Shown piece after piece: positions 21,205 through 53,201 of a stretch of DNA of 64,000 bases. The DNA is from an uncultured cyanobacterium (GTDB taxonomy: Bacteria > Cyanobacteriota > Cyanobacteriia > CAKZMO01), in assembly GCA_963719515.1 (NCBI GenBank), contig CAVRCJ010000001.1:160001-224000 (forward strand), given 5' to 3'. The first letter of the stretch is position 1, and each line of letters opens with the position of its first letter. The notes beneath the pieces are model-generated. The model saw only the letters and a list, made by a program, of their open reading frames with translations, did not search any database and was not told the DNA's origin. The position numbers were made by a program, and so were the translations under genes.

Positions 21205-21991
21205 GTCGGGTAAAGAGGTGACATCGCTGCCACCCCCTCCCCTCAGAACCGTGCTTGCGACTCTCACCGCACACGGCTCAAGCAGACCATAGCTAAAGGG
21301 GACAAGCGTGGATTTGTTGGTGGCAATAGAGATGAAGCAACTCTAGGTTATCGAAGGTGTTCTGACCACCACGCGCTTTAGGAATGCGGGGGTGGAGTTC
21401 GAGAGCCTCCCCATTGAATAGAGAGTCTCCGCACACAGAACACCGGCCGTTCTGCCGTTGCGCAGTGCGCTGACGGGTAGGTTTCAGCTGACTAGCTTTT
21501 AGCGACTAGACGAGAAGCCCCGCGCTCTACCCGTCTAGGGTGAGCGTCGGGATGAGAGTCGCGCTAGCCGAAGTGCGCCCGCAAAATGATGCACAGCGGA
21601 TAGTGCGCTCAGCGCTGAGGCTAGCAGTTGGTATGATAGAGATAGCAAGGTGATACACCCCGCAAAGAGTGTGACGGGCCCGTAGGCGAAAGCTGCAAGT
21701 CACCCGTTCCTCAGTTTGCAAATGTATCTGCGACACATAGTGCGTATCCTCCCTCGCGGAGATGAAAATTCAAAACTCTGCCGTGGGGCATCAGGCGGAG
21801 TATAAACCTATCTCAGGATATGTCTCGGCAATAGCTGGGAGTCACTGAGGAAGCCCGCGCTGTACAGCTTGCTGTCAGCGTCGGGAGGGTGTCACGGCTT
21901 GTCGCTGTTGCCAATAGGCCTTGAGCGCCGGGTCATCCATCGAGGCGGAGCCTTTGGCAATGGTGTGGCGTTCAATTGTGAACCAAGAGAA
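21205..21991 (-). mobile_element. 5'-truncated group II intron (C-terminal part of the IEP with HNH domain, domain V, domain VI)
   Basis: DV GAGCCGTGTGCGGTGAGAGTCGCAAGCACGGTTC (21246-21279). DVI ends in CCCGAC at 21205. The IEP fragment reads FSWFTIERHTIAKGSASMDDPALKAYWQQRQA|LKASQLKP...CSVCGDSLFNGE...NLELLHLYCHQQIH. Confidence 0.9.
21503..21895 (+). mobile_element. Non-autonomous IS200/IS605-family element, copy 1 (393 bp, omega-RNA-like right end)
   Basis: Related subterminal hairpins CCCGCGCT...AGCGTCGGG at both ends (21519-21551, 21854-21885). Ends in TCAC, preceded by TTTAG, no TSD. Its removal restores the intron IEP reading frame. Confidence 0.88.
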
Positions 21992-22043
21992 AGGGACGGC
22001 CAGCTTTTTGGGGCTTTTCTGCCCAATACATCAGAGAAAACCC

Positions 22044-22322
22044 ATGACATTTCTATATCCCGAGCGGCCTTCCAGCGAGGCCGCACCCACCGTGCTGACC
22101 ACTCCCCAGCCCGGCCCCAACGACGAATACATCCGCCACCTGCTGATCGGCTCCCCCGAAGCCATCCGCGAAACCATCCATCTGCTGCATCTGCGCGACT
22201 ACGTCGAACAGGGCCTGTGGAGCGGACCCATCGCCATTGGCGACGGCGGCGTCAAGATCACTCACCGAGAAGGGCAGGCCCTAGCCTACCTGATGCGGCG
22301 GCGGTCTTTAGATATCTCGTAG
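22044..22322 (+). CDS. Small cyanobacterial hypothetical protein (IRHLLIGSPEAIRETIHLLH motif)
   Basis: 92-aa ORF from ATG 22044 with coding-like codon usage. Confidence 0.75.
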   Translation: MTFLYPERPSSEAAPTVLTTPQPGPNDEYIRHLLIGSPEAIRETIHLLHLRDYVEQGLWSGPIAIGDGGVKITHREGQALAYLMRRRSLDIS

Positions 22323-22673: not shown

Positions 22674-23555
22674 ATGTCCGAAAAGACCCCCTGCCCCCAA
22701 AACCCCTATAGAGCCCCCTTTAAAGTTCTCCAAAGCTGGCTTAAGCCTCTGCCACTGGGGCTAACGCTGACGCTCTCCCTGGTCGTTCAAATTATCCTGC
22801 CCTCTCCTGCCGCCGCTCAGTTCGACAGCCCCCCTCCCCAGCGCCCCTACAACCACTGCCCCCAAGACCTTCACGGTCAAATTCAGCGCATCATAGATCG
22901 GCCAACTTTCCAATCGGCACAGTGGGGCATCGTCGCCGAAACCCTATCCGGGCAAGTGCTCTTTCATCGCAACCGCGATCGCCTTTTCATCCCCGCGTCA
23001 AACATCAAGCTGCTCACCACCGCCGCCGCCCTACAGACTTGGGGAAGCGAAGACGACGCTCTGCAGACCTGGGTCGGCATCGTCAACCGCGAAAGCAACA
23101 ACAGCTCTGCAGACGCCCTGCTAGCTCGCCTCGGCGGCCCAGGACAGGTTCAGGCCGCACTATCAACTTTAGGCATTGACCCCCTCAGCTTTCGGCAGGT
23201 CGACGGCTCTGGGCTAAGCCGCTACAACGCCGCCCAGCCCAGCACCTTTGTCACCGTGCTCAAAGCCATGTGGAGCGCCCCAGGGGGCAGCATTTTCTAT
23301 GGATCGCTGCCCGTAGCAGGGCAAAGCGGCACTCTACGGCGGCGGTTTCGGGGCACCGAGCTGCAGGGGCGTTTGCGAGCCAAGACGGGGACGCTGCGCG
23401 GCGTCAGGGCGCTGTCAGGCTATCTGAGCCATCCTGACTACGGCCCCATTGTATTTAGCATCATGGTGAACCAGCCTGGGCAATCGGGAGACCAAATGCT
23501 GCAGGCTATAGACGGCGTGGTGCAGGAGCTATCGCGGCTGACGATCTGTGAGTAG
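22674..23555 (+). CDS. dacB: Compact D-Ala-D-Ala carboxypeptidase/endopeptidase (peptidase S13, PBP4-like)
   Basis: PASNIK, ESNN, DGSGLSR and AKTGTL motifs. Confidence 0.8.
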   Translation: MSEKTPCPQNPYRAPFKVLQSWLKPLPLGLTLTLSLVVQIILPSPAAAQFDSPPPQRPYNHCPQDLHGQIQRIIDRPTFQSAQWGIVAETLSGQVLFHRNRDRLFIPASNIKLLTTAAALQTWGSEDDALQTWVGIVNRESNNSSADALLARLGGPGQVQAALSTLGIDPLSFRQVDGSGLSRYNAAQPSTFVTVLKAMWSAPGGSIFYGSLPVAGQSGTLRRRFRGTELQGRLRAKTGTLRGVRALSGYLSHPDYGPIVFSIMVNQPGQSGDQMLQAIDGVVQELSRLTICE

Positions 23556-23565
23556 TGGGTGTGAT

Positions 23566-24582
23566 CTACTGCTGCGGCGCTTCCTCTAGCTCAAGCTCCA
23601 GCATGGGCTCCTCCAGCATGGGCTCCTCTGAGGCCGGTTCGCCCGTTGGTTCGTCTAACGCCGGACCGTCCACCGGCATCTCGTCTATAGGTAACTCAGG
23701 AGCAGTTTCACGGCGCACCCGAATTTTTTGCAGCGACTCACGCACCGCCGGCAGCGCCAGGAACGTCTCCGTCTGCGAGAGAAGCTGTGGGCCCCACAGG
23801 TTTTCCTCTAGAAATTCAAGGTCAGCGTAGCGGGGGTCGATGCTCAAAGCGGCGATCGCTTGCTCAACGGCTTCCTCTTCTTCCCCTTGTGCAAACCGAG
23901 CGACCGCGATCGCCATCTGAGGTTCAGCTTCCTCACGCTCGGTCAGCTTAACCGCGTCTTCCCAGCGGTCAATAGCCTTCTCAACGCGGCCCTGCTCATA
24001 GAGCACTAGCCCAATATTGTTGACGGCAGGCCAAAATTCAGACTCTAGGTCCACCGCCTCTTTGTAGCGATCGATGGCCTGATCGTATTGGTCGAGCTTA
24101 TAGTAGGCGTTCGCTAAATCAAACCAAGCCCCGGCCACCCCCGGACTGGTGTCAAGCCCCAATTCAATGTAGTCGACCGAGCGCTGATACTCTTCTAGCT
24201 GAAAGTAGACGGTGCCCAAATCGAACAGCGCCGCCGGGTCTTCCGGGTCGAGGGAGCGGGCCTTCTCTAAAGACACCACCGACGGCTGCAAGTCTCCCAA
24301 CTGTAGGTAAAGGCGGCCCAGCAGCAGCCAAACCTGGGGCGTATCGTTGGCCAGCTGAGAGGCGAGCTGGGCTCTCGGTAAGGCTAGCTCGAACTGCTGA
24401 ATTTGGGCAAGCTGGGAGGCTTCTTGCGCAAGCAAAAGGCCCTGTTGCTCCAGCTGCTCTGGCTCAATAGGGGGCGTGTGCGGAACAACCGCCTGAGCAT
24501 AGACGGCCTCTTGGACTGTCAGCAGCGTTGCCGCAGAGGTTAGTCCAGCGATGAGAGCAGGCAGAAGGTGGCGCAGAGTCAT
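23566..24582 (-). CDS. Exported tetratricopeptide repeat protein
   Basis: Signal-peptide-like N-terminus and several TPR units (AWFDLANAYYKLDQYDQAI; AVNNIGLVLYEQG). Confidence 0.85.
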   Translation of the reverse strand: MTLRHLLPALIAGLTSAATLLTVQEAVYAQAVVPHTPPIEPEQLEQQGLLLAQEASQLAQIQQFELALPRAQLASQLANDTPQVWLLLGRLYLQLGDLQPSVVSLEKARSLDPEDPAALFDLGTVYFQLEEYQRSVDYIELGLDTSPGVAGAWFDLANAYYKLDQYDQAIDRYKEAVDLESEFWPAVNNIGLVLYEQGRVEKAIDRWEDAVKLTEREEAEPQMAIAVARFAQGEEEEAVEQAIAALSIDPRYADLEFLEENLWGPQLLSQTETFLALPAVRESLQKIRVRRETAPELPIDEMPVDGPALDEPTGEPASEEPMLEEPMLELELEEAPQQ

Positions 24583-52321: not shown

Positions 52322-52409
52322 AGCTCAAATCCACGTCAATGTCGGAGTGCAGTCTGGTTACAGATTACCCCCGCTGTTTATGTTTCGCTGCAGTTGCGCA
52401 CGAGAATTC

Positions 52410-52801
52410 GTGACATCCTCCCGACGCTGACAGCAAGCTGTACAGCGCGGGCTTCCTCAGTGACTCCCAGCTATTGCCGGGACATATCCTGAGATAGGTT
52501 TATACTCCGCCTGATGCCCCACGGCAGAGTTTTGAATTTTCATCTCCGCGAGGGAGGATACGCACTATGTGTCGCAGATACATTTGCAAACTGAGGAACG
52601 GGTGACTTGCAGCTTTCGCCTACGGGCCCGTCACACTCTTTGCGGGGTGTATCACCTTGCTATCTCTATCATACCAACTGCTAGCCTCAGCGCTGAGCGC
52701 ACTATCGGCTGTGCATCATTTTGCGGGCGCACTTCGGCTAGCGCGACTCTCATCCCGACGCTCACCCTGACGGGTAGAGCGCGGGGCTTCCCGTCTAGTC
52801 G
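52410..52801 (-). mobile_element. Non-autonomous IS200/IS605-family element, copy 2 (392 bp)
   Basis: Reverse complement of 21503-21895 with 4 substitutions and a 1-bp indel by eye. Also preceded by TTTAG (CTAAA at 52802-52806). Confidence 0.9.
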
Positions 52802-53201
52802 CTAAATTGAACCTCGTCTCAGCCGGGAGAGGGCTTTGATTTTCGGCGTAAACCGAGGTACTTTGCGCCACAAAGTGTAGTGAAGTAGACGGCATCGCTA
52901 CAGCGTCATGCGTAACGTCGGTAGATGACGCGTTTGTCAGTAATGCGTCCCTTGACGCCTGCTGAAGCTCGATACCCCTGACTAAGTATAGTAACGTCTT
53001 TCGGTAGTCCCTGAAGCAGGCCTATCTGCCAGGCAAACGAGCCGCAGCGACTAGCCACAGCTCACACCGGCGAGGGAGGTCATGGGTGAGTCGGGCAGTT
53101 AACAAAGCGTCGTAAGACGGCTTCTCAATTTACACTAGAGTATAGAGAGCCGCTACGATCTGATACTAACCAACACTAAAGATTTAGAAAGGTAAAGTTC
53201 T

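Follow-up and report, generated by a model that had tools for sequence, protein, structure and literature searches.

We have analysed a protein-less mini-element of the IS200/IS605 family of insertion sequences that occurs in a 64,000-nucleotide stretch of DNA from an uncultured cyanobacterium (the whole stretch, here called the window, is G000:C1:160001-224000 of the source genome G000, which comprises 5.28 Mb in 21 contigs with 57% G+C). BLASTN of the mini-element against the whole of G000, which is the source of the copy count, gave 53 full-length copies of 96.7-100% identity. We consider it probable that these copies are elements of the PATE type, likely mobilised in trans by the transposase TnpA of three full-length siblings, and that they specify a predicted omega-RNA, driven from a -10 box and provided with a guide by the flanking host DNA. 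This reading builds on precise insertion sites, on larger siblings with the same ends, and on a right end that retains the helices of TnpB-bearing relatives.

Copies, boundaries and target sites

Two of the copies are located in the window, and an earlier note made from the letters of this DNA had described them correctly: they differ by four substitutions (21513, 21598, 21825 and 21889) and one single-base indel at 21536, both have TTTAG directly 5', start with CGACTAG and end with GTCAC, where the similarity ceases, and target duplications are absent from their unrelated flanks. The count of two given there falls far short of the 53 found genome-wide. The two copies, their target motifs and their ends are listed below.

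21503..21895, + strand: copy 1 of the mini-element (393 bp), an IS200/IS605 derivative that encodes no protein, probably a PATE (sequence, copy alignment, empty sites)
52410..52801, - strand: mini-element copy 2, 392 bp (sequence, copy alignment)
21498..21502, + strand: TTTAG target motif of copy 1, outside the element, and predicted transposon-associated motif (TAM) (TTAG in 53/53 copies, TTTAG in 47)
52802..52806, - strand: TTTAG target motif of copy 2 (sequence)
21503..21571, + strand: left end common to the tnpB and tnpA+tnpB siblings, with a reverse-strand relic of TnpA/Arc-like C-terminal codons (RDSHPDAHP) (BLASTN, blastx)
21519..21551, + strand: imperfect subterminal hairpin of the left end, one T unpaired close to its foot, beginning 16 nt past the cleavage point (DNA fold of -16.9 kcal/mol, z -2.8)
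21854..21885, + strand: imperfect subterminal hairpin of the right end, one T unpaired, finishing 10 nt short of the element end (DNA fold)
21892..21895, + strand: TCAC right-end cleavage motif (transposon-encoded motif) (53/53 copies and 21/21 TnpB-bearing relatives end in TGTCAC)

The tally of copies and 5' flanks that had been proposed as a check came out in favour of the family assignment. TTAG was found immediately 5' of all 53 copies (47 TTTAG, 3 CTTAG and 3 GTTAG) and GTCAC at the 3' terminus of all of them, and the first three bases of the right flank took 35 different values among the 53, which means that there is no target duplication. Genome-wide, TTAG makes up 0.23% of the position-strands and TTTAG 34% of the TTAG sites; chance would by no means account for the TTAG flank or for the preference for T at position -5. 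Insertion thus takes place 3' of a conserved 4-5-nt motif and without target duplication, as is characteristic of IS200/IS605 elements. Related bulged hairpins had also been claimed for the two ends, and the folds at 21519-21551 and 21854-21885 are such a pair, with the common foot CCCGCGCT/AGCG(T)CGGG. Each hairpin foot is preceded on its 5' side by four bases, AAGC at the left end and GAAG at the right end; following the IS608 pairing rule, they could presumably act as DNA 'guides' for TTAG and TCAC.

The empty site of copy 1 was present in a congeneric genome (G004), where base 289 of contig C569 corresponds to window position 21502 and base 290 to 21896, with 99% identity on either side of the joint. 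The joint (marked by a slash) reads ...CTTTTAG/GGCTTGTCG... with the empty site TTTAG/GGCTTG. An identical joint, with 393 bp skipped, was found in one contig each of the metagenome runs X1 and X6, which stem from two studies, and was not seen in runs X2 and X5. In-silico excision of copy 1 yields a 114-codon open minus-strand frame that reads QA/LK across the joint, and the boundaries formerly deduced from this restored frame agree with the joints in G004 and X1/X6. The precise empty sites support mobility of the element, showing presence and absence between strains. For copy 2, homology of the flank with the genomes G002 and G003 does not extend past the right-end edge of the copy; a clean empty-site joint was not obtained from these two genomes, as the intergenic DNA beyond the edge is too diverged. 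G002 and G004 contain diverged mini-element copies, also behind TTTAG, with 94% and 86% identity, respectively, the one in G004 being truncated by a contig end. Of 17 genomes of the order, three, all belonging to one genus, have the central segment of the mini-element.

Two pairs of mini-elements in the same orientation lie 1.4-2 kb apart (G000:C10:299673-300064 with 301662-302053, and C6:167508-167899 with 168886-169277), an arrangement that may be due to local hopping or to a composite structure.

Siblings carrying tnpB and tnpA

A search for parents with the same ends, likewise suggested before, revealed ~15 tnpB elements of 1,483 bp and three tnpA+tnpB elements of ~1.8 kb. Nineteen left-end/right-end pairs of larger siblings were identified, 15 at 1,481-1,482 bp, three at 1,777-1,798 bp and one at 1,610 bp, together with a few additional sibling ends truncated by contig edges. 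The first ~69 nt of the mini-element (positions 3-69) are 91-95% identical to the sibling left ends by BLASTN, and the last ~85 nt are 84-87% identical to the sibling right ends.

The 1,483-bp sibling encodes a TnpB of 398 amino acids (aa) with matches to OrfB_IS605, the Cas12f1-like TNB domain and HTH_OrfB. This protein matched the ISDra2 TnpB structures 8exa and 8h1j with E 5e-44, the residues of its D, E, D motif align with a TnpB-like chain, and 18 full-length TnpB matches of at least 95% identity were found in the genome by tblastn. The ~1.8-kb sibling has an additional, divergent 159-aa Y1 transposase (TnpA), which matched Y1_Tnp over the entire profile (E 8e-41) with the HVH and SYF motifs visible, and tblastn gave three full-length TnpA copies at 98-100% identity. 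In one tnpA-bearing sibling (L002) tnpB is frameshifted. A Y1 transposase between matching ends is thus available in the mini-element's own genome, on the three ~1.8-kb elements, whose left ends have 91-95% and right ends ~86% identity to those of the mini-element.

The place of tnpA is taken in the 1,483-bp sibling by a 60-aa open reading frame (ORF), divergent from tnpB and with a ribbon-helix-helix-like start. Its sole Pfam match was a weak one to DUF6290, below threshold (E 0.003).

L001 1532-1714 (G000:C1:63431-63613), + strand: 60-aa ORF of the 1,483-bp sibling (ORF call, weak DUF6290)

The final residues of this ORF extend into the left-end hairpin, like those of TnpA, and a TGCTATCAT box lies 13 nt ahead of the tnpB ATG in the same sibling.

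In public genomes the nearest TnpB relatives were cyanobacterial, including Phormidesmis, and all 21 right ends of TnpB-bearing relatives that were compared finish with ...GGAG(G/T)ATGTCAC or a close variant. A public contig labelled as a metagenome-assembled genome of Rubricoccaceae (L014) carries a TnpB element with 99% protein identity to the G000 copies and the same right end, suggesting mis-binning or very recent transfer.

Interior, scaffold-like region and predicted guides

The remaining features of the two copies belong to the interior of the mini-element, to the scaffold-like region and to the adjoining host DNA.

21572..21680 (mini-element ~70-178), + strand: central segment with a candidate promoter inside (no homolog in the parents)
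21629..21637, + strand: predicted extended -10 box TGGTATGAT, with a predicted transcript start at ~21644 (TGnTAnnnT in three species)
21681..21848, + strand: decayed tnpB 3' end with an in-frame stop (blastx)
21764..21895, + strand: omega-RNA-scaffold-like region of copy 1 (model R1, 105.7 bits, E 3.3e-31, model positions 1-125 of 125)
52410..52541, - strand: omega-RNA-scaffold-like region of copy 2 (model R1, 109 bits, E 3e-32)
21896..21911, + strand: predicted 16-nt guide of copy 1, from the host flank (position, and analogy with ISDra2)
52394..52409, - strand: predicted guide of copy 2 (position)

Mini-element positions 179-343 (21681-21845) matched TnpB residues 346-398 with 42% identity over 55 aa (blastx against a two-protein database, E 9.5e-7), and positions ~255-393 (~21757-21895) are 71-79% identical to the tnpB 3' end plus right end of the TnpB-bearing elements. 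By these alignments the last ~215 nt of the mini-element are shown to descend from the 3' part of tnpB together with a right end, and the 28-aa ORF at 21762-21848 is, judged from its residues (AVGHQ...SG.VSA.AGSH), a relic of the TnpB C-terminus. The earlier note had taken this ORF for the only one in the element, which did not hold, as a minus-strand ORF of 69-77 aa is also present; the longest ORFs of the mini-element are this one and one of 37 aa. We do not regard the minus-strand ORF as a gene, since its start codon is GTG, a frameshift breaks it in G002, and its frame runs out across the left end. Since blastx detected no relics other than one of TnpA, 9 aa long, and one of TnpB (55 aa plus stop), the mini-element appears to have no transposase gene of its own, and the view of it as a tnpA/tnpB-deleted derivative is supported by the same-end siblings and the tnpB 3' relic.

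The central ~100 nt are of a different kind. They gave no BLASTN match to the parents and relatives, and when aligned locally with the interior of the parents they reached scores of 22-23, which 37 and 57 of 300 shuffles also attained (shuffle means 17.7-20.4); among the 17 genomes of the order the segment was not found outside the genus. The candidate -10 box in this segment reads TGCTATACT in G002 and TGGTATAAT in G004, and its TGnTAnnnT pattern survives an overall divergence of 6-14% across the three species. Just downstream of the predicted start, a compensatory change from A-U to G-C was seen in the three-sequence alignment, which is a hint only. None of the 15 sequencing runs listed for the mini-element sequence was an RNA run. 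A consensus scan also placed minus-strand promoter-like and terminator-like sites in the element, one such site being within the shuffle range.

A covariance model (R1) was built from nine TnpB-bearing 3' ends, with the mini-elements left out. R1 matched both window copies across all 125 positions with no non-standard pair flagged, and the matched region consists of a hairpin (21775-21801), a long-range helix (21812-21817 with 21845-21850) around a further hairpin (21823-21840), and the right-end hairpin. Across the genome R1 detected 21 parent-type and 53 mini-type ends, plus 31 weaker ends of other families. These weaker matches (e.g. C11:35092-35166, C10:332407-332545 and C11:132596-132712) represent other repeated IS200/IS605 or mini-element families, which have the right-end hairpin and a ...GGGAGTATGTCAC terminus in common with the mini-element, and several families in G000 appear to use the same TnpA end type.

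A structure alignment of ten sequences, two mini-elements and eight TnpB-bearing elements, yielded five consensus helices within the final ~120 nt. The 32 consensus pairs are 97.2% paired and nine of them have changed on both sides, whereas none of 500 shuffled controls reached any of the five measures and slid controls were 32-52% paired. Of the nine covarying pairs, six are located upstream of the right-end hairpin and three within it; this hairpin is also the DNA substrate of TnpA. The difference between the two window copies at 21825 (T/C) replaces a U-G by a C-G pair within a helix, as the earlier note had pointed out. In helix 1 the mini-element has ACUCUGCC/GGCGGAGU against AGGGCC/GGCUCU in the relatives, that is, a compensatory block and a 6-nt insertion. 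The comparison shows that the mini-element retains helices conserved in its TnpB-bearing relatives. For the mini-specific variant of helix 1, no exact match in a TnpB-bearing element was found in the metagenome contigs; a looser 18-nt pattern hit at least 120 stretches, and these were rejected as TnpB-bearing relatives and attributed to chance, since none of the 80 that were scored passed R1.

By position, a guide is predicted directly after the element. The omega-RNA of ISDra2 needs a 116-nt scaffold followed by a 16-nt guide, and its scaffold precursor is 231 nt long (PMC10097598). By analogy, the guide of copy 1 would find its match at the empty site of G004 (TTTAG+GGCTTGTCGCTGTTGC), and TTTAG itself is inferred to be the TAM for TnpB from ISDra2/IS608 biology. 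TTAG-flanked near-matches elsewhere in the genome were found for two of the 53 guides, each with one mismatch within the first 12 nt and diverging afterwards; they were judged to be chance matches, and self-targeting by the mini-element guides was rejected.

The pathway that we propose would begin with the resident TnpA moving the mini-element as single-stranded DNA in a 'peel and paste' manner. Transcription from ~21644 through the right end into the flank would produce a precursor of ~250 nt, similar in length to the 231-nt one of ISDra2, which TnpB from the ~18 intact tnpB copies would load. After excision, TnpB would cut the restored site of TTTAG plus guide match, and recombinational repair from the sister chromosome would restore the mini-element, as in the homing/retention model of Meers et al. 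2023 (PMC10055086).

Alternatives, known systems and genomic context

Several observations weigh against an active guide RNA. The promoter consists of a -10 box only: the box that the earlier note had read as an extended -10 is in place at 21629-21637, with its pattern in three species, but the sigma-70 consensus scan does not call it and there is no -35 (the position reads TCAGCG). Scoring of the right end against omega-RNA covariance models, another check suggested there, gave an end-to-end match with R1 (105.7 and 109 bits) but none with a curated family, a scan of 21300-22100 with Rfam 15 at E up to 10 giving no relevant family, only a chance miRNA match outside the element. No convincing partner for the guide-adjacent bases in the 5' part of the scaffold, as in the ISDra2 pseudoknot, was seen by eye, the terminal bases being invariant in all relatives and hence uninformative as to covariation. 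Moreover, the scaffold shares only ~79% identity with its counterpart in the resident TnpB elements and carries the 6-nt insertion, so that it is only putatively compatible with their TnpB. All 53 copies are so alike (96.7-100% identity) that within-genome selection is not measurable, and the 6-nt insertion preserves the former tnpB reading frame, so that the helix-preserving changes may predate the loss of tnpB and need not show RNA selection in the mini-element. The covariation in the right-end hairpin can be explained by the DNA substrate of TnpA alone.

An alternative is a plain non-autonomous IS200/IS605 mini-element without RNA function, in which the tnpB 3' remnant and its helices would be leftovers of a recent deletion, kept only through the youth of the element and the needs of TnpA at the right end. 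The near-identity of the copies, the solitary -10 box, the absence of an Rfam match and the in-frame insertion in helix 1, which may date from a coding tnpB, all suit this explanation, which we nevertheless regard as unlikely. The coding frame has decayed (stop, 42% identity), yet all pairs outside the TnpA hairpin are still standard. TnpA of IS608 needs ~45 nt at the right end, as in the RE45 constructs (PMC3201880), yet ~130 nt beyond that need are kept in G000 and G002, G002 being identical at 112 of the last 118 nt, and the -10 box is kept across three species.

It is very improbable that the RNA is made without guiding cuts, either as a decoy soaking up TnpB or as an outward promoter or small RNA acting on neighbouring host genes: the scaffold differs by ~21% from the resident one and has an extended helix 1, 53 of the 74 strong scaffold-bearing family ends are mini-elements and would dominate the RNA pool, and transcription would enter host DNA, but nothing specific speaks for it, the flanks have no common downstream context, only two of the 53 guides have a TTAG-flanked near-match elsewhere (each mismatched within the first 12 nt), and the stand-alone omega-RNAs that were assayed elsewhere guided cleavage (PMC10691335).

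The guide-RNA reading can be extended to a further idea, to which we give only a small chance, namely that of a mini-element living as a hyper-parasite on its own family. It would have shed tnpB, the putative Arc-like repressor gene and the divergent promoter, and a private -10 box would drive its guide RNA. With 53 of 74 guide-bearing ends, the mini-elements would escape the repressor, seize the TnpB pool for their own retention, and outnumber their TnpB-bearing (~21) and TnpA-bearing (3) siblings. Arc represses tnpB promoters in other IS605 elements (Moon et al. 2026 preprint, 10.64898/2026.09.24.754181), and the 60-aa ribbon-helix-helix-like ORF of the 1,483-bp sibling, divergent from tnpB, resembles the arrangement in those elements. 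Unlike them, the mini-element has neither the 60-aa ORF nor the divergent promoter region, and to regard this as an escape from Arc-type control is speculation. The available part of the preprint makes no mention of 'PATE', 'non-autonomous' or 'cyanobacteri'.

Guide-only elements are a kind already described, and the current picture of such systems is unchanged by the present case. Stand-alone omega-RNAs of OMEGA systems were reportedly described by Altae-Tran et al. in 2021. Meers et al. 2023 describe protein-less PATE-like elements in Geobacillus stearothermophilus, for which the use of TnpA and TnpB in trans was proposed (PMC10055086). Like these, the mini-element is without a protein gene, has ends that match TnpB- and TnpA-bearing siblings, and retains the guide-RNA region. 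Unlike the Geobacillus elements, it has a cyanobacterial host, a TTAG/TTTAG target and a TCAC end motif, its 53 copies outnumber the TnpB-bearing (~18-21) and TnpA-bearing (3) siblings, and an unrelated sequence of ~100 nt, in which the candidate -10 box lies, has taken the place of the parent interior. For mobilised omega-RNAs that stand alone, action in trans has been shown experimentally (PMC10691335). The mini-element is similar in being a mobilised guide-RNA locus without effector or transposase, with a compatible effector elsewhere in the genome, whereas its own function in trans is only inferred.

The comparison with IS608 of Helicobacter pylori and ISDra2 of Deinococcus radiodurans (PMC3201880, PMC10097598) reveals several common features: the insertion site directly follows a short motif that is not duplicated, both ends have imperfect subterminal hairpins in which a T is extra-helical, and the guide scaffold of ~116-130 nt spans the right end and the 3' end of tnpB. 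Cleavage at the right end is 10 nt from the hairpin foot, as it is in IS608 (PMC3201880). On the other hand, the mini-element lacks tnpA and tnpB, its left linker is 16 nt as compared to 19 nt in IS608 (PMC3201880), and its motifs are TTAG/TCAC as compared to TTAC/TCAA in IS608 and TTGAT in ISDra2.

What is distinctive here is the cyanobacterial host, the TTAG/TCAC motifs, the proportion of 53 guide-only to ~21 TnpB-bearing to 3 TnpA-bearing forms, and the exchange of the parent interior, with its putative Arc-like gene and divergent promoter region, for a short segment that has a candidate -10 box of its own. A single genome with autonomous (3), TnpB-only (~15-21) and guide-only (53) forms that have the same ends constitutes a clean modular example of IS200/IS605 organisation, with an exact empty site on hand in a sister strain. 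For a cyanobacterial TnpB it yields a predicted TAM (TTTAG), a predicted scaffold of ~130 nt and 53 natural guides, and could aid both assays of the resident nuclease and the study of competition between guide-only elements and their parents.

As to the surroundings of copy 1, the element splits a minus-strand ORF (window 21296-21502 and 21896-22030) with a C-terminal HNH endonuclease domain (PF01844), and the downstream portion of the interrupted frame matched this domain with E 4e-11. The adjoining upstream DNA has more than 25 diverged paralogs genome-wide, which suggests a decayed multi-copy gene of the retroelement type. The neighbouring genes, a fragment-like ORF of Peptidase_S13 (D-Ala-D-Ala carboxypeptidase; 22674-23555, + strand) and a tetratricopeptide repeat (TPR) protein (23566-24582, - strand), constitute an ordinary context.

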